DNA of 64,000 nucleotides from the IMG/VR virus record IMGVR_UViG_3300029394_000152. One strand, written 5' to 3'. Made by a program: the position numbers and the translations under genes. The notes beneath the pieces were generated by a model. It was not told the DNA's origin. It searched no databases and worked only from the letters and a program-made list of their open reading frames with translations. This stretch comes from a virus. Every line of letters starts with the position of its first letter. The first letter of the stretch is position 1. This document shows, piece after piece, positions 11,086 through 64,000 of the stretch.

Positions 11086-11163
11086 CCGGGTGTAGCGCAG
11101 TTTTGGTAGCGCGCTTGAATGGGGTTCAAGAGGCCGTGAGTTCGATTCTCGCCACTCGGACCA
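11086..11163 (+). tRNA. tRNA-Pro (GGG)
   Basis: cloverleaf with 7-bp acceptor, C1:G72 and A73 typical of bacterial tRNA-Pro, anticodon loop AUGGGGU, T-loop TTCGATT, encoded CCA. Confidence 0.8.
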
Positions 11164-12670
11164 GACGCATCCCAGACGAACTTTCTTTTTGTAAGTTTGT
11201 CTGGGATGTTTTTTTGTTTTTGTTAACGGTTTCGTCCGAAACATTAAAATTGATAACCAGTTCACGGTCGCTAACTACCATACTTGTTACAAAAGTGTTA
11301 ACAAGACGGCGACCATACTCCGGTGTGCGCTCGGACGGCTCCACCAAGAACTGTTCCAGCAGGAAAAGGTACTGTTCTTTGGTGAATACAACCGGCTTCT
11401 CCTTTTCCAGAGCAGAGAGCTGGAAGTTCAGAGTGCGCTCCTGTTCGCTCAGATCGTCCAGACGGGCGCACAGCTGCGCATTGGCGGTGCCGTTTTCGAT
11501 GGCGTCCAGAATGTTCTTACTACGGCGGCGGACATCGGCAAGGCTCTGTTCGATGGCTACGCGCTCGGCGTTTGGTTTTTCCGCATCAGCCTTTTGCACC
11601 TCGACCATAGCTTCGGCCAGCGCTTCCATGGCTTCCGGCTGCAAGAGGTGATCCGAGATGGACTGCATGACCTTTCCTTCCAGATCGTCCTTCGGGATGT
11701 TCCGCAGGTGGCAGTTCTTGTTGGGACAGGTGTAGTAGCGGTAGACCTCGCCGGTGGCGCTGTGGCCGCTCATGCCGCGCATGAGGGAACCGCAGGAGCA
11801 GTAGAGCTTGCCGGACAGGATATAGTCCGCTTTCGGTTCATTCTTTGCCTTGAGCTGACGGTTCAGTTTCAACATGGTTTGTGCCCTCTCCCAAAGTTCG
11901 TCGTCGATAATGGCCGGAATGGCCCCTTCAATGCGCACATCATACGATTTGCTGACGTACACGCCGCGATAGGCTTCGTTCTGGATGATCCGGGGAATGC
12001 TGCTCTTGTTGAAGGGGTTGCCCTGACTGGTACGCAGACCTTTGGCGTTGAGCTTATCTACAATAGAGGTGGCGGATTCCCCGGCGGCGTAATGCTCAAA
12101 GATGAAGCGGACGGTGGGAGCGGTCTTTTCATCAATGACAAACCGTTTGTGTTCGTCCGTTTTCAGGCCAAGGGCACGGCATCGGCTGATGGCCTGCCCC
12201 TTGAGGGCACTTTCTCTCATGCCGCGGCGCATCTTCTCGGCCAGCTCGGCAGAGTAGTATTCGGCCAGCGCTTCCATCACGCCCTCAATGATGATACCTT
12301 CCGCACCGGCGATATTGGATTCTGCGGCATAAACGATCTCAACGCCGTTGTCACGCAGGCGTTTCTTGTACACGGCAGAATCATAGCGGTTCCGGGCGAA
12401 GCGGTCTGTTTTCCAGCAAATCACCATATCGAATGCGCCCTTGTCGCTGTCAGTAATCATTTGCTGGAACGCTGCACGATCATCGGTCTTGCCGCTGATG
12501 TGGCGATCCACATATTCTTTCTGAATGGTCATGTTGTGCAGGCGGGCGTAGGTCTCGCAGTCCCGGCGCTGGCCCTCAATGGACTGCTCGGTCTGCCCGC
12601 TGCCGCCGCTGTATCTGTAATAGGCGACCAGCCGCACTTCGCCGCCCTTGTTGAATTTTCTTTTTGCCAT
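11126..12670 (-). CDS. large serine recombinase (prophage integrase)
   Basis: N-terminal resolvase catalytic domain (YYRYSGGSGQ...) with a long zinc-ribbon/coiled-coil C-terminal recombinase domain; last 13 codons overlap the tRNA-Pro 3' end. Confidence 0.9.
   Translation of the reverse strand: MAKRKFNKGGEVRLVAYYRYSGGSGQTEQSIEGQRRDCETYARLHNMTIQKEYVDRHISGKTDDRAAFQQMITDSDKGAFDMVICWKTDRFARNRYDSAVYKKRLRDNGVEIVYAAESNIAGAEGIIIEGVMEALAEYYSAELAEKMRRGMRESALKGQAISRCRALGLKTDEHKRFVIDEKTAPTVRFIFEHYAAGESATSIVDKLNAKGLRTSQGNPFNKSSIPRIIQNEAYRGVYVSKSYDVRIEGAIPAIIDDELWERAQTMLKLNRQLKAKNEPKADYILSGKLYCSCGSLMRGMSGHSATGEVYRYYTCPNKNCHLRNIPKDDLEGKVMQSISDHLLQPEAMEALAEAMVEVQKADAEKPNAERVAIEQSLADVRRRSKNILDAIENGTANAQLCARLDDLSEQERTLNFQLSALEKEKPVVFTKEQYLFLLEQFLVEPSERTPEYGRRLVNTFVTSMVVSDRELVINFNVSDETVNKNKKTSQTNLQKESSSGMRLVRVARIELTAS
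11167..11218 (+). terminator. rho-independent terminator after the tRNA
   Basis: perfect 10-bp inverted repeat catcccagac/gtctgggatg followed by TTTTTTTGTTTTTG; lies inside the 3' coding end of the recombinase on the other strand. Confidence 0.6.
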
Positions 12671-13527: not shown

Positions 13528-13773
13528 ATGGTATATCCGCTGGCTGAAAAGTATCTGCGTATCAGTGGCAAAACGGTAGAAGAACTGGCGGAAGAAGTCG
13601 GGACTTCCCGCAGTACGATGTACTACAAACTGAATGGCGGCTCAGACATGAGCGTGGAAATGGCTATCAAGGTCAAGGCGGCTTTGGGTGCAGAGGAAAG
13701 CATTGAAAAGCTCTTTGCACGCAGCGACGAACCCGAAAAGCAGGAGGGCGAAGCGCATGACGCTGAAACCTGA
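13528..13773 (+). CDS. Cro-like HTH regulator
   Basis: HTH GKTVEELAEEVGTSRSTMYYKL; GGAGGA RBS. Confidence 0.6.
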   Translation: MVYPLAEKYLRISGKTVEELAEEVGTSRSTMYYKLNGGSDMSVEMAIKVKAALGAEESIEKLFARSDEPEKQEGEAHDAET

Positions 13774-14065
13774 ACACATTGTAGAAGCGCTGAACAAAAC
13801 GCCGGAGCTGAAACGTCGCCTGATCCTGCGGATCATGGAAGAACTGCTGGACAGCGAAGCCTTTATGGAAGCGTACCCGCGCTTGTATGACCCGGCAGCG
13901 GCAGAGGCTTCACCGGAGTATAGGGAAAAGGTACGCGAAGAACTGGCGCAGATCATCGTGCGGCTGTTCCACAAAAACAAAGTTCGCCCGGACGATGCCG
14001 AAGAAGCATTGAACCGGGCGAGAGGAACTTATTTGGAAATGTATGTCCACTCCGATAAATCGTGA
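13757..14065 (+). CDS. hypothetical protein (copy A of a duplicated unit)
   Basis: ATGA-coupled start; N-terminus MTLKPEHIVEALNK is shared with the 14320 gene. Confidence 0.5.
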   Translation: MTLKPEHIVEALNKTPELKRRLILRIMEELLDSEAFMEAYPRLYDPAAAEASPEYREKVREELAQIIVRLFHKNKVRPDDAEEALNRARGTYLEMYVHSDKS

Positions 14066-14244
14066 GGGAGTTCTTCCAGATTTGAAGCATCGGGGCAGCC
14101 GGTGGCACGGCAGTATACATTGTCTGCTTCAATCTGTGGAGTGGGGCAGGCTTCCCAGATAATGCCGTTGTACAGAAATCCGAACAGGCCGTCACCGGTT
14201 GGGACGATATACAACGGGCCGATAGAAGAATGGTAGACCCACAT
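14029..14244 (-). CDS. hypothetical small protein
   Basis: 71 aa; AAAGGAGG RBS; own promoter TTGTTG-N17-GTGCTATAAT (extended -10). Confidence 0.45.
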   Translation of the reverse strand: MWVYHSSIGPLYIVPTGDGLFGFLYNGIIWEACPTPQIEADNVYCRATGCPDASNLEELPHDLSEWTYISK

Positions 14245-14319
14245 ATTTATAACGCCTCCTTTCCGACTGATTATAGCACGGCGGGGAGGGGAGAGACAAC
14301 AAGCAGGAGGGCGGAGCGC

Positions 14320-14604
14320 ATGACGCTGAGACCTGAACACATTGAAGAAGCGCTGAACAAAAAGACGTTTGATGAAATCGACCCGGACGAAGTTCTGAAA
14401 CATTACGGCTACAAGCCGGAAGAAGTTCATTGCAACGGCGTCGGGATCGGTGTATGGCGCAAGGAAGAAGCGTTTCAGAAGTTGGGGGACATCGGGGCAT
14501 TCATGAGGTTTGTTGACCATAAAGCAAAAGCCCGGATCGAGTTCAACTACGACCCGGACTTTCCGGCGGCGTTGCTTATTACACACGCCGCCACAAAGAC
14601 GTAA
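14320..14604 (+). CDS. hypothetical protein (copy B of the duplicated unit)
   Basis: N-terminus MTLRPEHIEEALNK; AGGAGGG RBS. Confidence 0.5.
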   Translation: MTLRPEHIEEALNKKTFDEIDPDEVLKHYGYKPEEVHCNGVGIGVWRKEEAFQKLGDIGAFMRFVDHKAKARIEFNYDPDFPAALLITHAATKT

Positions 14605-14606
14605 GA

Positions 14607-14816
14607 TCAGTTTCCCAGAAGCGTGCATTTGCATCCTTGAGGAAAACAAGGAGAAGATTCAAAGTCCGCTGGCGATGTCCAGCAAACCTCTGCGGATTCA
14701 AGGCCGGATGTTCCAACCTTTTCAAAGACTTCCCATGCGTACTGTTCCATTTTCTTACAAGCTGCTATACGTTCAGATATGGGTAGTGCGCGAAGATCGA
14801 CAAAGTAGTATTTCAT
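14607..14816 (-). CDS. hypothetical small protein
   Basis: 69 aa; GGGGAGGGGG RBS; second copy of the TTGTTG-N17-GTGCTATAAT promoter. Confidence 0.45.
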   Translation of the reverse strand: MKYYFVDLRALPISERIAACKKMEQYAWEVFEKVGTSGLESAEVCWTSPADFESSPCFPQGCKCTLLGN

Positions 14817-15253
14817 AAATTCACCCCCTCCCCATTTTATATGTTCAAATTATAGCACGGCGGGGAGTACAAGCACAACAAGGAGCACGAGGGTATGAGC
14901 AAATGGCCGAAAAGATGAAGCCGGACAAGCTGACGCTGGATGTCCGGCAGGCCGACGCCGCGGGGCTGTCCTACGGCAGGTGGAGATTTGAAGAAACCGC
15001 GCGCAAACGCAAGGAAAAAGAGATTATCCACCGCCAGTGCGAAGAACGGCGGCGTCGGCGAGATGAAGCATTATCTGGCAAGGGCTGAAAGAACACGCCA
15101 GAGCGGCCCGCATGGGCAGGCGGTATGTCTGACACCGCCTTTATATGGTGCGGCCAGTGCAGGCGGGGAGCGTCAAGCCCCGCCGCCCGGTGTCAACTCC
15201 GGGACACACCACCATATCCGAAAATTTACCTGCAAGCAGAAAGGACAAAGAGT

Positions 15254-22628: not shown

Positions 22629-23276
22629 ATGAGCAAGATTTTGAAAAGCACAACTTTGGGCAATGTGAAAAATGGCGGCATCTTCAAGGCACTGGGCAAG
22701 GAGTTTGTGAAGCTGGATGCAGACGAACACGGCTGTCTGGTGCTGGCAAAGGACATTTGGACGAAAATGCCGTTCCGTGATGGTGACGACCCGGAGTGTC
22801 CCAACGATCTGCGCCGGAGCGATGTCATGAAGTATTTGAGTGACCGTTTCACAGAGTTTGTCCAGAGAGGAACGCCGCTGGACACTTTCATTCCGTTCAA
22901 GATCGACCTGCAGGACACAACCGGACAGACCGAATACGGAACCGTTGAATACAGAATCGGCCTGTTGACCCTGCGTCAGTATGGAAAGTATTGGCGGCTG
23001 ATCCCGAAGGTAGATACGCCGTGGTGGTTGGCGACGCCTTACGGTACGCCGAATTGCTCTCCGTACACCGACGGTAGCAACAACGTCTGGGTCGTCGGCA
23101 CCGATGGCTCCTACTACTACTACTGGTACTACAACTCCTATGGTGTTCGCCCCGCTTTGTACTTTCCCTCTACACTCTGGGTCTCTACCGAGGATGAAGG
23201 AGAAGCCGGGTTTTGCCTCGCCGATGTTCCATTGGATGATCTGCTGGCTGAAATCAAGAGCCGGGCGGAGGAATAA
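22629..23276 (+). CDS. DGR target protein 1 (C-terminal VR, probable C-type-lectin-like fold)
   Basis: C-terminal about 100 nt matches the TR near 61.6 kb except at template adenines; VR peptide ends ...NSYGVRPA, as in target 2. Confidence 0.7.
   Translation: MSKILKSTTLGNVKNGGIFKALGKEFVKLDADEHGCLVLAKDIWTKMPFRDGDDPECPNDLRRSDVMKYLSDRFTEFVQRGTPLDTFIPFKIDLQDTTGQTEYGTVEYRIGLLTLRQYGKYWRLIPKVDTPWWLATPYGTPNCSPYTDGSNNVWVVGTDGSYYYYWYYNSYGVRPALYFPSTLWVSTEDEGEAGFCLADVPLDDLLAEIKSRAEE
23056..23156 (+). repeat. DGR variable repeat VR1
   Basis: about 100 nt aligned to the TR; all 19 mismatches sit at TR adenines (for example AAC to TAC, GAC, GTC, GGC, AGC); shares the 3' GC-rich ctcctatggtgttcgccccgct. Confidence 0.75.
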
Positions 23277-29964: not shown

Positions 29965-30070
29965 GGTTCATAGCTCCTTTTCGTTTTCGTGATGTTCCCG
30001 ACATTTATGCCGGGAAGATGGGGCGGGGCCGCTTTGAATCGGTGCGGCCCTGCTGGGGTGTCCGCTTTTA

Positions 30071-30991: not shown

Positions 30992-31083
30992 AATTCGTTT
31001 GCTCCTTTTCGCGTTTCGTGTTGTGCCTTTCGGCTGGGATCGGGTCGCTTTACGGTGCGGCCCGTCAAGGTATCCGGCGCGGA

Positions 31084-31569: not shown

Positions 31570-31689
31570 AAATTCAAGCCTCCTGTTTTCGTTTTTCGTG
31601 TTTCGTGACGATCCCCCGGCGGGGTGCCGGTGGGAAGTGGGGCGGGGCCGCTTTGAACGGTGCGGCCCTGCTGGGGTCTCCGTTTCGTG

Positions 31690-32631: not shown

Positions 32632-32735
32632 GGTAAATACTTCCTTTCAATTTTTGTTGTGGTTCTTCCCGGCGGGGCCGGGTGGATGGGATCGGGTCGC
32701 TTTTCGGTGCGGCCCGTCAAGGTATCCGGCGGGGA

Positions 32736-33308: not shown

Positions 33309-33426
33309 GGTTGTTTCTCCTTTTCGTTTCGTGGTGTGGCTTTTCGTGCTTTTCCCCGGCTATTGTCGGGGCGTGGGATCGGGTCGCTTTTCGTGGTGCG
33401 GCCCGTCAAGGTATCCGGGGCGGCGT

Positions 33427-33831: not shown

Positions 33832-34031
33832 GTTCTCGATCTCCTTTTGATTTTGGTTTTGACCCGGCGGAATGCCGGACCCCATGAGCGCCCGCCCCGT
33901 TTGGGGCGGCTGGACTTGCACCAGCGGCGGCGGATGCCGTCGGCCTTGCGGGGCGGGCTTGACTTCACTTCCTTTCGGTGGTAAAATCAGATTGCTTGAA
34001 AAAGTGCTTGTTCATGCGAACAAGTAGGCTG

Positions 34032-34789: not shown

Positions 34790-35215
34790 CGCCCCGGCCT
34801 TTTTTCTTTTTGCCCGCTATGCCGGGCCGCTCACACTGCACCGCCTGCAGCAGCCAGCGCCCGCCGCGCACCGGCTGCACCGGGCATTCCGCCGCCGCCC
34901 TGCCTGCTGCATACCATGCCAGCGCCGCCCGCCTGCCCTATGCCAGCATACAGCAGACCGCCGCGCCCTACTGCACCGCCTGCACACTGCCAGCCATGCA
35001 GCAGCCAGCACCGCCCGCCGCCTTGCCGCGCCTGCCAGATCGCCGCCGCGCCCGGCCTGCTTTGGGGCGGATCGCTGGCCCGCTGGCCCCGCCCGCCTGC
35101 CGGATCGCCGCCGCGCTGGCGCTGCCCGGCCCGCCGCGCCGCCTCTTGCAATGACCCCGCGCCCGCCGCCCGGCGCCGGGCCGATGACCACGGCCCGCCC
35201 GCCCCGCGCCCGTAG
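34790..35215. repeat. about 78% GC low-complexity repeat-rich non-coding tract upstream of terS (candidate pac/cos region)
   Basis: GCCGCC/CCGCC-rich; repeated caccgcctgca...cagcagccagc blocks about 130 bp apart; only mutually overlapping spurious ORFs. Confidence 0.4.
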
Positions 35216-57369: not shown

Positions 57370-58800
57370 ATGGCAGACAACAAGTTTGTAACCCTCGAAG
57401 CTCTCAAATCCACTACGGTGCGCTTGCAGCAGGAGTGGATCAAGTCCATCTCCAAGGCTGGTCATGCCCGCTTTGAGGTGGCGGAAGCCATCCCTGACGC
57501 ATCCGCAGCGCAGGAAAACATCATGTATCTTGTCATGAACGACAAGACGCAGCACTACGACATCTACGCAAAGGTCAATGATAAGGTCGTCCTGCTGGAC
57601 GATACCACTGTTGACCTGTCCGGCTATGCTACCAAGGAACAGCTGGAAGCTGTTTCCGGCGGGCTTGGCGGTGCAGTCTATGCGGCGACCAAGGCCGATC
57701 TGTCCGCATCGGACGACAGCGTAATTTCTGGTTACTTCACACAGCATACGGGCGCAAAGCCCAAGAAGGGCGATGTCTTTGTCGTGACCACCACCGTGGA
57801 CGGTTCCACCTATGAGCAGTCCGCCTATTTCTATGACGGTTCTGCATGGGTGGCCATGACCGGTTCCGTGGATGCCGATAAGGTCATCCTGCGGGAGAAC
57901 ATCACGTTGGCCGGTGGCTATACGCAGGTCGGCAACCTGACCAAGAGCCAGAACGGAACGGCAACCTTCCAGACGAAGGGCAAGTCCGTCGCCGACATCC
58001 TGACTGAGATTTTCAGCAAGCGTCTTCAGCCCACCATCACGGCGCAGCCCTCCGTCACTGGCTTTGCTTTGAACGGAGCGAAGGCTGTCGAAGCTGGTAC
58101 TCAGATCGCTGCTGCGTCTTATGGCACTGCTGAACTGAACCCCGGTTCCTACAAGTACGGTCCTGACACCGCAGTTGTAGCTTCCGGCTGGAAGGTTGAG
58201 CGCATCACCGACAAGGCGACGACCGAGGTCGCAAATGCTGAGACCGCTTCTCTGGCTGCTGGTTCCGACAACAACGGCGGCGCTGGTTTCGTCATCGGTG
58301 ATGCTGGCGGTGACGCTGTGGCAAGCCTGAAGTACAAGGCCACTGCGACGCACGGCGCAGGTGTTACCGCAAAGGACAACCTCGGCTCCGACTCCAACCC
58401 CGCTGTGGCTATCGCAGCAGGCACGAAGTCGAAGGAGACCGCTGCATACACGCCGTTCCGAAATTACTTCTACGGTGCCACCGCCGAGAAGCCCACGCTG
58501 AACAGCGACTACATCCGCAGTCTGACTAAGAGCGGCAAGGCGTATGCCGCTGGTACGCTGACCATCAACGTCCCCGTCGGTGCGCAGCGTGTGGCAATCG
58601 CCTGCATTGCGACTGCAAAGGGCGTCACCAAGGTCATCAACGAGACCGCCATGAACGCAGATGTCACCAGCACCTTTGTCAAGTCCACTGTTCCCGTTGA
58701 GGGTTCGAACGGCTATTCCGCCAAGACCTACAATGTGTGGATCTTTGAGCCTGCTGTTGCCTATGGCAACGCCGCAGTGCTGAAGGTCACGCTGGGTTAA
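57370..58800 (+). CDS. tail fibre / receptor-binding protein
   Basis: 476 aa, Gly/Ala/Thr-rich. Confidence 0.5.
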   Translation: MADNKFVTLEALKSTTVRLQQEWIKSISKAGHARFEVAEAIPDASAAQENIMYLVMNDKTQHYDIYAKVNDKVVLLDDTTVDLSGYATKEQLEAVSGGLGGAVYAATKADLSASDDSVISGYFTQHTGAKPKKGDVFVVTTTVDGSTYEQSAYFYDGSAWVAMTGSVDADKVILRENITLAGGYTQVGNLTKSQNGTATFQTKGKSVADILTEIFSKRLQPTITAQPSVTGFALNGAKAVEAGTQIAAASYGTAELNPGSYKYGPDTAVVASGWKVERITDKATTEVANAETASLAAGSDNNGGAGFVIGDAGGDAVASLKYKATATHGAGVTAKDNLGSDSNPAVAIAAGTKSKETAAYTPFRNYFYGATAEKPTLNSDYIRSLTKSGKAYAAGTLTINVPVGAQRVAIACIATAKGVTKVINETAMNADVTSTFVKSTVPVEGSNGYSAKTYNVWIFEPAVAYGNAAVLKVTLG

Positions 58801-58814
58801 AGGAGGGCTGAACA

Positions 58815-59120
58815 ATGGCTGTGAACAATACCGCAAAGAAGCATTCCGACATGGAGTTCCCGCTGGCTATGAAGCGGCAGGATGCTTTCGCACTGGATGA
58901 GACCGCCGTGTGGCCGTCCATGGAAACCGCGCAGGCATACGCAAAGACCAATCCCACTGCCTACATCGGCCAGCTGCTTTCCGTCATCGTTGACGGTGTA
59001 GCTACCCCGTATGTGATCCAGAACGCCGCAGGCGACCTTGCCCCGCTGGGAGCTGCCGCCGTGACCATTGCTTCGGATGCTGAAGCCAATGAAGCAATCA
59101 CTGAGGTTTTTGGTGAGTAA
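58815..59120 (+). CDS. hypothetical (possible fibre assembly protein)
   Basis: 101 aa. Confidence 0.35.
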   Translation: MAVNNTAKKHSDMEFPLAMKRQDAFALDETAVWPSMETAQAYAKTNPTAYIGQLLSVIVDGVATPYVIQNAAGDLAPLGAAAVTIASDAEANEAITEVFGE

Positions 59121-59202
59121 GAACCCGTGACCGACCGGCTGCCCGGAAAGGCTGGACAGCCGGATATTTTATAAGATAAGAAAGAAAAAGAGGTATTTTA
59201 TT

Positions 59203-60048
59203 ATGGCTTACAATGCAAACGCTCTCGTCCGTCTGTCCGCTCTGAAGAATCTGGCCGCAAAGACCAAGGCTGAGATCGACAACATCAACACCGACGTTTC
59301 CAAGGCTATTAAGTCTCTGGGCGTTGACGGCAATACCGTGAGCTTCTACACCTCTACCGACAAGAGCGGCACTGCTGCTTTCTCCGTTGACTTCCCCTCT
59401 GAGCTGTTCCTCGACCAGACCAAGACCACCTTCGTGGCCAAGTTCAAGTTCGATGCCGCCACCTACCCCGGCGCTACCGACCCCAAGCTGGACGGCAAGC
59501 CCGTCATGGTGCTGGCTGTTAAGGGCCAGAACCCTGACAACTGCACCTACAGCTTCCTGAACATGGCCGCTCTGGTCGATACCTACGCCGCCAAGGCTAC
59601 CGGCAAGGATGCATCCACCACCGTTACCATCGCCGGTTATGAGATCGAAGTGAAGGTGAATGTCTCTGCAACTGCTGGTAACGCCCTGAGCCTCAAGTCC
59701 GACGGTCTGTATGTGGACATCAGCGGCAAGGCCGACAAGGCGAAGAACGCCACCGCTGGCAACTTCGCCGCTCTGGATGGCGAGGGCAATCTGACCGACA
59801 GCGGCAAGAAGCCTGCAGACTTCGTGGCCGCTGAGACCGGCAAGCGTCTGATGACCAATGCAGAGGGCGAAAAGCTGAAGGACATTTCTGCTGGTGCCAC
59901 CAAGACCGCCGCCAGCGAGACCAACGGTCATATCACCATCGACGGCGTGGACACCACCGTGTACACTGAGCCGTCCGATGTGATCCACGGCACCGTCGCA
60001 TCCGACAGCGATGTGACCGCTATGCTGACCGAGGTTTTCGGCGCATAA
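59203..60048 (+). CDS. hypothetical tail-associated protein
   Basis: 281 aa. Confidence 0.4.
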   Translation: MAYNANALVRLSALKNLAAKTKAEIDNINTDVSKAIKSLGVDGNTVSFYTSTDKSGTAAFSVDFPSELFLDQTKTTFVAKFKFDAATYPGATDPKLDGKPVMVLAVKGQNPDNCTYSFLNMAALVDTYAAKATGKDASTTVTIAGYEIEVKVNVSATAGNALSLKSDGLYVDISGKADKAKNATAGNFAALDGEGNLTDSGKKPADFVAAETGKRLMTNAEGEKLKDISAGATKTAASETNGHITIDGVDTTVYTEPSDVIHGTVASDSDVTAMLTEVFGA

Positions 60049-60952: not shown

Positions 60953-61543
60953 ATGACTGAACAACCGTTTCTGGTTGGCAGCAAAGCGCGGGAGCTTCTG
61001 AGATATACACAGAGGGCGACCCGCATCGTTTCGGATGACATCAGCCGTAGCGATGCCCGAAAAGTATTTCAGAAAGCCGCTGCGCTTGAGGACATCCGGG
61101 AAATCAAGCAGGTCTGCACCACCGCTGTCCATGCTCTCGATACGAGGGAGAAGGAGGGCTTCACGAAAAGCACCTTCAACCTCTACGGCAGGGACATCAG
61201 GGAGATAGCCAAGAAGATTCTGCTGGATGCCCATGCGGCCAACAACGTGAACTTCGCCACGGAGTACGACAAGCGGATTGAAAAGATCGGTGAGGTCGTG
61301 GACGGCTGTTCTCTGCTGCTGGAATATCTGACCCTCTGCACGGAGGATGGTATCATCAGCACCAAGAAAGCCGGTATCTGGACAAAGAAGATCACGGATG
61401 TAAAATACCCGGCCATGAAGTGGCTCAAGTCTGAACGTGGCCGGGCAGAAAATCTCCGGCAGGAAGCAGAGAAGAAACGGCTTGAAATGCTTGTCAAAGC
61501 ACTTCGGGCCGTCTTTGCCCAGCAGGAGCAGAAAACGGCATAA
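60953..61543 (+). CDS. helical protein upstream of the TR (candidate DGR accessory protein, Avd-like by position)
   Basis: 196-aa helical protein ending 43 nt before the TR; no recognisable Avd motif. Confidence 0.25.
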   Translation: MTEQPFLVGSKARELLRYTQRATRIVSDDISRSDARKVFQKAAALEDIREIKQVCTTAVHALDTREKEGFTKSTFNLYGRDIREIAKKILLDAHAANNVNFATEYDKRIEKIGEVVDGCSLLLEYLTLCTEDGIISTKKAGIWTKKITDVKYPAMKWLKSERGRAENLRQEAEKKRLEMLVKALRAVFAQQEQKTA

Positions 61544-61585
61544 CAGGAAACTGTTTTGCAATAGGGGTACGGTTTATATTCTGAC

Positions 61586-61705
61586 GCTGCCATTTGGTGG
61601 CTGCGCTCTCCGAACACCAACAATAACAACAACGTCTGGAACGTCAACACCGATGGCTCCAACAACAACAACTGGTACAACAACTCCTATGGTGTTCGCC
61701 CCGCT
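61586..61705 (+). repeat. DGR template repeat (TR)
   Basis: non-coding 120 nt, AAC-rich, near-identical to VR1 and VR2 except at adenines; followed by a distinct 3' end (IMH*-like) ctgatggaacc. Confidence 0.8.
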
Positions 61706-61875
61706 CTGATGGAACCGTGTGACGAGTAGGCATAAGCTGAAAGCAGTGCGCCCATCAAAGGAAACCGCATCCTGTCGCTTGCCGATGCAGGCAAGTGATA
61801 AATACATCCCGCTGAGGTGGGCCATCCCTGCCGGATGCAGCCCACTACCGTAACGCGAACCAGCGGAGGGTCATT

Positions 61876-63105
61876 TTGACATACGAAGAACTGTGCAGCT
61901 TTGAGGTGCTTTACAAAGCCTACCTTGAAGCCCGGAAGGGAAAGCGCAGTAAAAGCAAAACAATCGAGTACGAGGCGCAGGCGCTGGCCTGCACGGAAAA
62001 GCTCTCCCGTAAGCTGGCTGTCTGCAATGTGCGGCAGCCAGACGGGAGCATTCGGCAGCAGATACGCTATGTGCCAAGTAAGTTTGAGGTCTTTGCCGTC
62101 TACGAGCCGAAGCGCCGCATGGTACACGCCCCCGCATTTGTGGACAAGGTGGTGCTGCACGCTCTGGTCGATAACATCCTGTATGATGCCCTGACAAAGA
62201 GCTTTATCCGGGACAGCCACGCCAGCCAGACCGGAAAAGGCACAGACGACGGCCTGATGCGCCTGAAAACCCACATGGTGGACTATTACCGCCGTGAGGG
62301 CCACGGCGCGGACGGCTGGGTGCTGAAAGGCGACGTGCGGCATTTCTTCGCCAGCATCGACCACCGGAAGCTAAAACGCAAGCTCAAAGCCGTGCTGGAC
62401 AAGCGCGGCGTTGACCCGCGTGTCTATGAGCTGCTTTGCATCTACATCGACGTGATGGAGGACGGCTTGCCGCTGGGCTACCAGACGAGCCAGCTTTTCG
62501 CCCTCATGTTTTTGGACGAGTTCGACCACATCATCAAAGAAAAGTACCGCATCAAATACTATGGCCGATACATGGATGATTTCTACATCATCTGTTCGGA
62601 CAAGCAGAAGTTGCAGTGCATCTTGAAGGATGTGCGGGCACTCATGGACGAGTACGGTTTGGAGCTGAACCAGAAAACGGCTATCTTCCCACTGAGGAAC
62701 GGCATTGATTTTCTGGGGTTCCATTCGTATCTGACTGAAACCGGCGCGGTCGTCCAAAAGCTGCGTCGGGACAGCGCCAAACGGATGAAAGCCAAAATCA
62801 GGCATTGGGAAAAGGCATACCCGGCGGGTGAGGTAACAAAGGAAGAAATCCTTTGTAGCTTCCTTGCATGGGATGCCCATGCTGCACACGGCGATACCTA
62901 CGCCCTGCGCCGCCAGTACGCCGACCGTCTGGGAAAATTGCTCAACTGCACAATTTCCATCCACCGAAAAATCAACTCGAATAAACTCGCACGAGACAGG
63001 CGACGCGCCCGGCAATGCCGCTGCATCTACAAGAAGCAGCACAAAGCCTTGACCGCCGCTGTCTCGCAGAACACAAGACCCATTGGCGTTTTGCCGTGGG
63101 CCTGA
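61876..63105 (+). CDS. DGR reverse transcriptase
   Basis: RT motifs including YMDDF and the DGR-specific LGYQTSQ (LGxxxSQ); no maturase or endonuclease domain; TTG start with a GGAGGG RBS; TR immediately upstream. Confidence 0.85.
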   Translation: MTYEELCSFEVLYKAYLEARKGKRSKSKTIEYEAQALACTEKLSRKLAVCNVRQPDGSIRQQIRYVPSKFEVFAVYEPKRRMVHAPAFVDKVVLHALVDNILYDALTKSFIRDSHASQTGKGTDDGLMRLKTHMVDYYRREGHGADGWVLKGDVRHFFASIDHRKLKRKLKAVLDKRGVDPRVYELLCIYIDVMEDGLPLGYQTSQLFALMFLDEFDHIIKEKYRIKYYGRYMDDFYIICSDKQKLQCILKDVRALMDEYGLELNQKTAIFPLRNGIDFLGFHSYLTETGAVVQKLRRDSAKRMKAKIRHWEKAYPAGEVTKEEILCSFLAWDAHAAHGDTYALRRQYADRLGKLLNCTISIHRKINSNKLARDRRRARQCRCIYKKQHKALTAAVSQNTRPIGVLPWA

Positions 63106-63121
63106 TTTTATAAGGAGGTAA

Positions 63122-64000
63122 CAATGGCAAACGTAAAACTGAGCACAAAGGCCGTTGGCAGCATCGTCAAGATCAAGGTCAACGGCGCGGCCAAAGATTT
63201 CATCATCGTGCATCAGGGCTTGCCCAGCAGCGCCTATGATGCAAGCTGCAACGGCGTCTGGGTTGTGATGAAGGACATCTACACCACGAGCACGTTCGGT
63301 AACAACAACTCTTACAAGGATTCCGGCATTCACACCTATCTGAACGGAACCTTCTACAACCTGATTGATTCTCAGATTCGAGCGGTTATCAAGCAGGTCA
63401 AGATTCCGTATACCAACAGCGGCGTTCAGAGCGGCGCAAACGGCCTTTCGACCAAGGTGTTCCTGCTGTCTGGCACGGAGGTCGGGTTCAGCGGCGTAAG
63501 CTACATGAACACCGAAGGTGCAAAGCTGTCCTATTTCGATAGCGCAAGCAAGCGTGTCGCATATAACGGCAGCAGCGCTGCCATTTGGTGGCTGCGCTCT
63601 CCGTACACCGACTATGTCAGCAGCGTCTGGTTCGTCTACACCGATGGCTCCCACGGCAACATCTGGTGCAACTACTCCTATGGTGTTCGCCCCGCTTTTG
63701 TACTTCCCTCTGAACTCGTGGTCTCTGACGACGGCACGGTCAGCACGAACACTGCACCGGCCATCAACACCAGCTCCACGAATCTGGGGGAGAAGAACGC
63801 GCCCTTCAACTTCGGATACACCGTTACCGATGCCGACGGCGATACTCTGACCGTCACCGAAAAGATGGACGGAAAGACCACCGCCACCCGCACAGGCGTT
63901 GCAAGCGGTACTGCACTGACCTTCAGGCAGGGCAGTACCGCCGACGGCTTCCGGCGCATCCTCAACGGCAGCCACACCATCCAGATCACGGCCAGCGACG
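63122..64000 (+). CDS. DGR target protein 2 (VR2-containing; continues past the window end with Ig-like repeats)
   Basis: VR2 encodes AAIWWLRSPYTDYVSSVWFVYTDGSHGNIWCNYSYGVRPA; partial at the window edge. Confidence 0.75.
63577..63696 (+). repeat. DGR variable repeat VR2
   Basis: 120 nt; all differences from the TR fall at TR adenines; shared 3' ctcctatggtgttcgccccgct, then an IMH-like tttgtacttccctctg also present after VR1. Confidence 0.8.

Follow-up and report, generated by a model that had tools for sequence, protein, structure and literature searches.

Layout of the locus

The window analysed here is the whole 64,000-nt stretch of the IMG/VR virus record IMGVR_UViG_3300029394_000152, a piece of Faecalibacterium chromosome that carries a Toutatis-like (Toutatisvirus) prophage. 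Between position 60953 and the end of the window, an Avd-like accessory gene, a template repeat (TR), a 170-nt spacer, a reverse transcriptase (RT) gene and a gene encoding a DUF6273 protein (target 2) follow one another, and this cassette is considered here as a diversity-generating retroelement (DGR). Target 2 contains one variable repeat (VR2); a second one (VR1) lies far upstream, in a small gene (target 1) of the early region. The features, all of them on the plus strand, are as follows.

60953-61543, plus strand: Avd-like accessory gene, 196 aa; matches phrog_3206 ("Avd protein of DGR") at 1.4e-29
61586-61705, plus strand: TR, 120 nt, with 34 adenines and, in the VR frame, 13 AAC codons and 1 AAT codon
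61690-61705, plus strand: adenine-free, GC-rich 3' end of the TR, 16 nt, common to the TR and both VRs; homology block resembling an initiation of mutagenic homing (IMH) site
61706-61875, plus strand: structured TR-RT spacer (Sp-like), 170 nt, including a 10-bp hairpin at 61774-61799
61876-63105, plus strand: DGR-type RT, 409 aa, TTG start; RVT_1, phrog_1423, LGYQTSQ and YMDD motifs
63124-64000, plus strand, cut by the window end: target 2 (tentaclin-type); DUF6273 at aa 43-196 (1e-38); phrog_10993
63577-63696, plus strand: VR2, aa 152-191 of target 2; 16/16 mismatches at TR adenines
63697-63731, plus strand: VR-specific conserved block that follows VR2 and has no counterpart in the TR
22629-23276, plus strand: target 1, a 215-aa stand-alone DUF6273 protein of the early/replication region; phrog_9958 (3e-83)
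23056-23156, plus strand: VR1, aa 143-176 of target 1; 14/14 mismatches at TR adenines
23157-23191, plus strand: VR-specific conserved block 3' of VR1

One template, two variable repeats

Sliding the TR against both strands of the window brings out exactly two further copies, at 63577 (104 matches out of 120) and at 23037, and the same three-copy family was recovered by a repeat finder. No TR-like copy other than these three was found when the search was extended from the window to the next 3 kb (on contig L138) and to the end of Toutatis. The TR aligns with VR2 without a gap over 120 nt, and each of the 16 mismatches falls at a TR adenine, a pattern with a probability of 7e-11 if 16 mismatches are placed at random among 120 positions of which 34 are A. 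VR1 corresponds to just the 3'-terminal 101 nt of the TR (23056-23156 versus 61605-61705), and its 14 mismatches also lie at TR adenines without exception (14/14, P = 1.6e-8). An earlier, sequence-only reading of this DNA had described an AAC-rich TR aligning with VR2 over 120 nt with mismatches at adenines only, and had proposed a three-way alignment of the repeats as a check. This description is borne out for both VRs, with 16 mismatches in VR2 instead of the roughly 21 given there; VR1, mentioned in that reading and left unlocated, is now placed by the alignment at 23056-23156.

The TR and the two VRs share the same reading frame, in which the TR reads AAIWWLRSPNTNNNNNVWNVNTDGSNNNNWYNNSYGVRPA. 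In this frame, adenine changes in the TR can create no stop codon, and the 13 AAC codons, the AAT codon and six other adenine-bearing codons allow about 1e20 stop-free protein variants, a design that fits the mechanism of adenine mutagenesis. VR1 lies 38.5 kb upstream of the TR in the integrated prophage, and a distance of about 16-17 kb across attP was computed for the excised, circularised genome; this matches the 17,480 nt reported to separate the TR from the second VR in Toutatisviruses (Egorov and Atkinson, 2024; bioRxiv 10.1101/2024.10.15.618418).

Alternatively, the three repeats could be plain paralogues, stretches of DUF6273 coding sequence whose similarity is maintained by selection or gene conversion, without any involvement of reverse transcription. 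The two targets are indeed true paralogues (98.9% probability in hhalign) and the conserved motif WW..SP...YGVRPA is a feature of the family. However, the restriction of mismatches to TR adenines refutes this reading, the TR lies outside any gene, between Avd and a DGR-type RT, and adenine sites are about 40 times more often variable than other sites among relatives; we consider it extremely improbable.

At their 3' ends, the three repeats have an adenine-free, GC-rich block of 16 nt (61690-61705) in common. This block had been delimited as 22 nt from the sequence alone, but A61689, inside these 22 nt, varies in relatives. By analogy with BPP-1, the 16-nt block may act as a homing signal. Downstream of it, VR2 is followed by TTTGTACTTCCCTCT and VR1 by TTGTACTTTCCCTCT; these two sequences, previously given as one and the same, are similar without being identical, with 78% identity between the 35-nt post-VR blocks against 48% in the neighbouring DNA. 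A homing-related role is conceivable for the blocks at 63697-63731 and 23157-23191, which also encode a conserved peptide, so that coding constraint and homing role are inseparable here.

A DGR-type reverse transcriptase and an Avd-like protein

The RT carries LGYQTSQ at aa 200 and YMDD(F) at aa 232, and RVT_1 (1.9e-19) is its sole Pfam domain, in agreement with the LGxxxSQ and YMDDF motifs and the lack of a maturase or endonuclease domain reported from the sequence alone. It matches phrog_1423 at 5e-123, and bRT, the RT of the BPP-1 DGR, belongs to the same PHROG. The best relative in the PDB is also bRT (8ub7_A, 4e-26), followed by a Cas6-RT-Cas1 protein (6e-9); the 328-aa chain 8ub7_A has D138, D215 and D216 at the catalytic positions stated for bRT in the cryo-EM preprint. 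In sequenced phages, the nearest RTs are those of Toutatis, Lelie, Brigit, nd12, nd4 and Shimadzu, all of which are DGR phages. From these profile searches, which had been suggested as a check of the initial assignment, the RT is predicted to belong to the DGR clade.

An origin of the RT in a group II intron, a retron or a defence system (DRT/Abi), with the repeats being coincidental, was weighed against this assignment. RVT_1 is common to group II, retron and defence RT families, and weak NCBIfam matches to group II, Drt3a and retron models were obtained, but these are sub-threshold (92 versus 300, 69 versus 200 and 50 versus 235 bits), the RT scoring far below all cut-offs of the group II, retron, DRT and Abi models. 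In addition, the LGxxxSQ motif is present and maturase and endonuclease domains are absent, no intron RNA and no retron msr/msd were found with Rfam, the nearest phage RTs all come from DGR phages, and bRT is the best solved relative by 17 orders of magnitude. With NCBIfam scores this low and bRT as the best PDB relative, group II intron, retron and defence-RT identities were rejected, and we give them next to no credence.

The gene upstream of the TR probably encodes Avd, as judged from a shared PHROG profile, its position and the name of one homologue. The profile is phrog_3206, which the experimentally characterised Avd of BPP-1 matches as well (8.8e-29), and one database homologue of the open reading frame (ORF) at 60953-61543 is named "23S rRNA-intervening sequence protein". 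Neither Pfam nor NCBIfam assigns this ORF to a family. An AlphaFold2 (AF2) model, built on a shallow alignment, is all-helical, with a predicted local distance difference test (pLDDT) score of 65.

Annotations around Avd and the TR call for some caution. Some database "Avd" homologues (P0296, P0302 and P0303) are 256-aa read-throughs of Avd into the TR and have a Pfam match to DUF6273, and gp80 of the RefSeq FP_Toutatis record (L001:8726-8878) is a non-coding TR annotated as a 50-aa "DUF6273 domain-containing protein". Both gp80 and the 256-aa entries are likely annotation artefacts that result from the resemblance of the TR to its targets.

A conserved spacer RNA

The TR-RT spacer of 170 nt, with its cttgcc/ggcaag hairpin, is present as first described, the stem being in fact 10 bp long (61774-61799). 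Its minimum free energy has a z-score of -2.3 relative to shuffles. Using RNAalifold on 16 distinct spacer variants, a consensus of 46 pairs in 8 helices was obtained, with 99.3% of cells paired, and compensatory changes are found at 7 pairs, versus at most 2 in slid controls. Of 75 related loci, 64% have an identical TR, 36% an identical spacer, and none an identical Avd or RT gene. Conservation within the cassette is thus highest in the TR and the spacer, and the fold of the latter is supported by covariation.

The Rfam family RT-2 (RF03077) matches the window spacer over the whole model with 21.9 bits, and the spacer of MT835569 with 29.3 bits; with a gathering score of 40, the window spacer stays outside RT-2 as Rfam defines it, and E-values of such sub-threshold matches were taken as a lead only. 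Nonetheless, the same helices are found in this match and in the covariation consensus, which suggests that the element carries a diverged RT-2-like spacer. Phage_DGR, the Rfam family of the BPP-1 spacer, gave no match to the window spacer. In known phage DGRs, RT-2 is found at 144.9 bits in the TR-RT spacer of Roseburia phage Shimadzu (L227:382-605) and RT-14 at 70.4 bits in the same position of the DGR of Bacillus phage BalMu-1 (L230:513-656), i.e., both lie exactly between Avd/TR and RT. Only RT-10 had been linked to a DGR by Weinberg et al., who speculated on the other RT motifs. RT-2 and RT-14, earlier annotated merely as RT-associated, are therefore DGR spacer RNAs.

The two target proteins

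The ATG of target 2 is at 63124, two nucleotides downstream of the start originally proposed (63122). Three metagenome contigs that encode an identical RT agree with the window at every overlapping base, and one of them, L138 (L138:3782-5005), provides the full 407-aa protein, identical to the window over the overlap, as well as lysis genes downstream of target 2. The match to phrog_10993, a "Hoc-like" head decoration family, spans the whole protein. VR2 (aa 152-191) lies inside the DUF6273 domain (aa 43-196), as the VR does in tentaclins, which consist of an N-terminal DUF6273/C-lectin domain with the VR followed by Ig domains (Baykov et al., 2023; PMC10743442). The internal position of the VR, with Ig-like domains after it, had been taken as unusual in the sequence-only reading; it corresponds to this published tentaclin architecture, which has also been described for Toutatisvirus (Egorov and Atkinson, 2024). 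The approximately 210 residues after VR2 are beta-rich in a low-confidence model (pLDDT 50-76), and no Pfam Ig family is significant in this C-terminal region. No PDB sequence match was found for the target. A C-lectin-like fold has been reported for DUF6273 (Baykov et al., 2023; Egorov and Atkinson, 2024), and the C-type-lectin fold of the targets is taken here from this literature and not from our models.

In target 1, aa 28-188 align with aa 37-203 of target 2, i.e., with its DUF6273 domain (98.9% probability in hhalign). On this alignment, target 1 is best described as a stand-alone copy of that domain, followed by a short acidic C-terminal tail. No hydrophobic segment was found in target 1 or in target 2. 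The neighbours of VR1 encode an SPFH membrane protein, a regulator, a replication initiator and several proteins of unknown function, and no structural gene is found among them. One can imagine that target 1 is an early-expressed cytoplasmic binder with a surface diversified by the DGR, rather than a receptor-binding protein of the virion, and that its diversification could help it, for example, to follow variable targets in host defence or host takeover. Its location among early/replication genes, far from the structural module and across attP from the DGR, would fit this proposal, as would the absence of a signal peptide or membrane segment, its status as a core gene kept even in Toutatisviruses without a DGR, and a diversification as heavy as that of the tail-proximal target; we nevertheless regard it as unlikely.

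Diversification in the population

The window, Toutatis and Lelie have an identical TR, and their VR1 and VR2 differ at adenine-templated sites only. In the metagenomic phage MT835569, the TR differs at non-adenine positions, and these changes are carried by its own VR2. Among 62 related loci with both repeats, 10 TR variants are found versus 62 distinct VR2 sequences (62/62), and 975 of the 1009 differences between TR and VR2 are at adenines. VR1 sequences are likewise all distinct (47/47), and, apart from three cases affected by indels, their differences from their own TR are almost confined to adenines. When only loci with the majority TR, which is also that of the window, are considered, substitution at adenine sites reaches 48% in VR2 (n=46) and 44.5% in VR1 (n=35), versus about 1% at other sites, and all 34 TR adenines vary. 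Since the VRs are unique, TR variants are few and adenine sites are substituted at 44-48% versus about 1% elsewhere, this lineage has written TR information into both of its targets many times. Population heterogeneity of the VRs, to which the first reading had pointed as a way of checking its claim, is found among the related loci as hypervariability at exactly the TR adenines.

Contig ends fall inside VR2 in 8 of 29 truncated loci (P = 1.3e-4) and inside the TR in 1 of 23, a clustering more suggestive of heterogeneity within samples than of assemblies simply breaking at a repeat.

Some VR1 sequences differ in length from the TR, namely those of MT836117 (L006:3450-3650), L105 and L107; in MT836117, this is a 3-nt deletion in the AAC-rich part. 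Such length differences go beyond adenine mutagenesis alone.

An intact DGR with two targets

Adenine-only differences between TR and VRs, an RT of the DGR clade, an Avd gene beside the TR, and hypervariable VRs with a constant TR are all found at this locus, in support of the complete DGR cassette first recognised from the sequence. We thus read the cassette as an intact DGR of a Toutatisvirus prophage in Faecalibacterium that rewrites two targets, with a probability of roughly 95%.

As its anatomy matches that of the BPP-1 element step for step, the BPP-1 mechanism is taken as the best explanation of how it would work. The avd-TR-spacer region would be transcribed, the spacer would fold, and its RNA would be bound by the RT-Avd complex. 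Synthesis of cDNA from the TR would then be primed from within the RNA (cis-priming), with the RT misincorporating opposite template adenines, and the cDNA would replace a homologous VR, the adenine-free GC-rich 3' block serving as a guide. The recipients would be target 2, through VR2 just downstream of the RT, and target 1, through VR1 at 38.5 kb. It is from BPP-1 that we infer the steps after transcription, with cis-priming and homing among them, and a ligand-binding role of the targets and activity in the window lysogen are likewise presumed.

Several observations weigh against this interpretation. No direct link between the Avd-like protein and bAvd was obtained by phmmer, hmmsearch or hhalign, and a Foldseek search of its model against the PDB returned nothing at E < 0.5, the S23/Avd-like structure 2rld appearing only at E = 2.2. 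An AF2 model of a full-length target-2 homologue, built from a 26-sequence alignment of about 90% identity, has a pLDDT of 40 and is unusable. Folding energies 3' of VR1 and VR2 are no better than those of shuffles when a BPP-1-like DNA hairpin or cruciform is looked for. The contigs with an identical RT, which come from three samples, have the same bases as the window wherever they overlap it, including VR2 in the two that extend that far. Finally, no read-level variation was seen at either VR of Lelie, in bacterial or in virus-like particle (VLP) reads (Gulyaeva et al., 2024; PMC11792537).

The last two points raise the possibility that the element is intact yet effectively silent in the window lysogen, its VR differences being the trace of past diversification. 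Identical contigs mean that there is no evidence of ongoing activity in the window strain, and the nucleotide-variation profile of Lelie is without a peak at either VR in both types of reads. On the other hand, this strain comparison rests on consensus contigs, and consensus assemblies are blind to minority variants; all ORFs and catalytic motifs are intact, the TR is the majority TR of the population, the VRs are unique in every relative, and the concentration of contig breaks in VR2 suggests within-sample heterogeneity in other samples. A silent element therefore appears doubtful to us, although it deserves more credit than the other alternatives considered above, and an intact DGR that rewrites both targets is retained as the preferred reading.

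Comparison with known systems

The DGR, its two targets, the Avd-TR-RT order and the tentaclin architecture have already been published for Toutatisvirus-type phages. A DGR was reported early on in Toutatis, with no Avd found and no function assigned to the target (Cornuault et al., 2018; PMC5883640). In Lelie, a large and a small DUF6273 protein were later each reported to contain a VR (Gulyaeva et al., 2024), and tentaclins were defined together with a small second target that has one C-lectin domain (Baykov et al., 2023). In 173 Toutatisviruses, the TR was placed between Avd and RT, with two VRs and two DUF6273 targets, the second target being a core gene (Egorov and Atkinson, 2024).

FP_Toutatis (NC_047915) has the annotated order Avd, TR, RT and "Hoc-like" DUF6273 target, a small DUF6273 target in the early region, and a 120-nt TR identical to that of the window; at the DNA level, the two share 97-99% identity in the early region, compared with about 88% across the DGR region. 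It differs in VR1 and VR2, at adenine-templated sites, in the length of target 2 (419 aa, versus 407 aa in the window), and in the tail-fibre genes at 57.4-60 kb, which are mosaic. Lelie (PP479942) also has an identical TR and the same layout, with one VR in its large and one in its small DUF6273 protein, whereas its VR sequences differ; it was induced experimentally, with no read-level VR variation (Gulyaeva et al., 2024).

The tentaclin phages nd4 and nd12 belong to other lineages and have RTs 42-46% identical to that of the window. They too combine one TR with two targets, one consisting of an N-terminal DUF6273/C-lectin domain with the VR followed by Ig domains and the other of a single C-lectin domain with short flanking helices, but their tentaclins are longer (569-579 aa, with three Ig domains; Baykov et al., 2023).

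The DGR of BPP-1 (Mtd, Avd, TR, Sp and bRT) shares with the window the RT clade, the Avd PHROG, the avd-TR-spacer-RT order, adenine-specific mutagenesis and an AAC-rich TR design. In contrast, its single target is Mtd, which is encoded upstream of avd and has its VR at the extreme C-terminus; the BPP-1 Avd is 128 aa long, versus 196 aa in the window; the BPP-1 spacer belongs to Rfam Phage_DGR (104.7 bits), whereas that of the window is RT-2-like and sub-threshold; and the DNA hairpin that follows the IMH of BPP-1 has no detectable counterpart in the window. Roseburia phage Shimadzu, finally, provides another two-target DGR from a gut prophage of Firmicutes (as cited in Gulyaeva et al., 2024). 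Its spacer is a bona fide RT-2 (144.9 bits), and that of the window matches RT-2 over the full length of the model and has the same helices, but at 21.9 bits against a gathering score of 40, and the two RTs are only 33% identical.

The locus thus carries little weight as a discovery and is of use as a clean, intact reference example of a two-target phage DGR, in a host, Faecalibacterium, that is among the most abundant commensals of the human gut. What is added to published work is the diversification of both the adjacent and the distant VR throughout a natural population, which could not be shown for Lelie, a covariation-supported fold of the spacer RNA, and the placement of two Rfam motifs, RT-2 and RT-14, in TR-RT spacers of phage DGRs that were already known.

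Genomic setting and other features of the window

The host assignment agrees with the UvrA protein encoded in the window, which is 99% identical to UvrA of a Faecalibacterium metagenome-assembled genome. The prophage begins near position 11126, at a tRNA gene with a large serine recombinase gene next to it, and its right end is beyond the window end. The tRNA gene (11086-11160, plus strand) overlaps this left end, coordinate 1 of Toutatis corresponding to position 11126 of the window, and the recombinase gene (11126-12670, minus strand) directly adjoins it. Identity to FP_Toutatis is 98.8% across the first 9.9 kb of the prophage and 97.2% across 20-27 kb; for 56-64 kb of the window, it is 87.8% over 57% of the region, with the same gene order. 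By genome-wide nucleotide similarity and synteny with FP_Toutatis, the prophage belongs to the genus Toutatisvirus, the comparison covering the prophage up to its last ~2 kb, which lie outside the window.

The tail-fibre genes just upstream of the DGR (57370-60048) are mosaic: Toutatis and Lelie cover only 57-59% of the 56-64 kb region, the segment at about 57554-59055 is 76.6% identical to FP_Brigit, and MT835569 covers all of the region at 87.8%.

Further structured RNAs are found on the minus strand of the prophage. A twister-sister self-cleaving ribozyme is located at 33875-33956 (Rfam, 77.4 bits; gathering score 34), along with five RAGATH-5 motifs at 30012-30065, 31028-31077, 31631-31683, 32680-32729 and 33367-33418, all of them above threshold (58-69 bits versus a gathering score of 50). 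These motifs, which account for the direct-repeat families D3 and D17 of the repeat finder, occupy the gaps in a minus-strand block of small prophage genes that corresponds to gp36-gp48 of Toutatis, between antiterminator Q and terminase. Near the start of the packaging module, GC-rich imperfect direct repeats of the CCGCC type are present at 34832-35125 (families D7 and D16). Just past the integrase, at 13738-14885, near-identical direct repeats of 67 nt (93%) and 37 nt (81%) recur with a spacing of about 563-579 nt (families D5, D6 and D8), and may reflect a few small paralogous genes in a row whose leaders are repeated.

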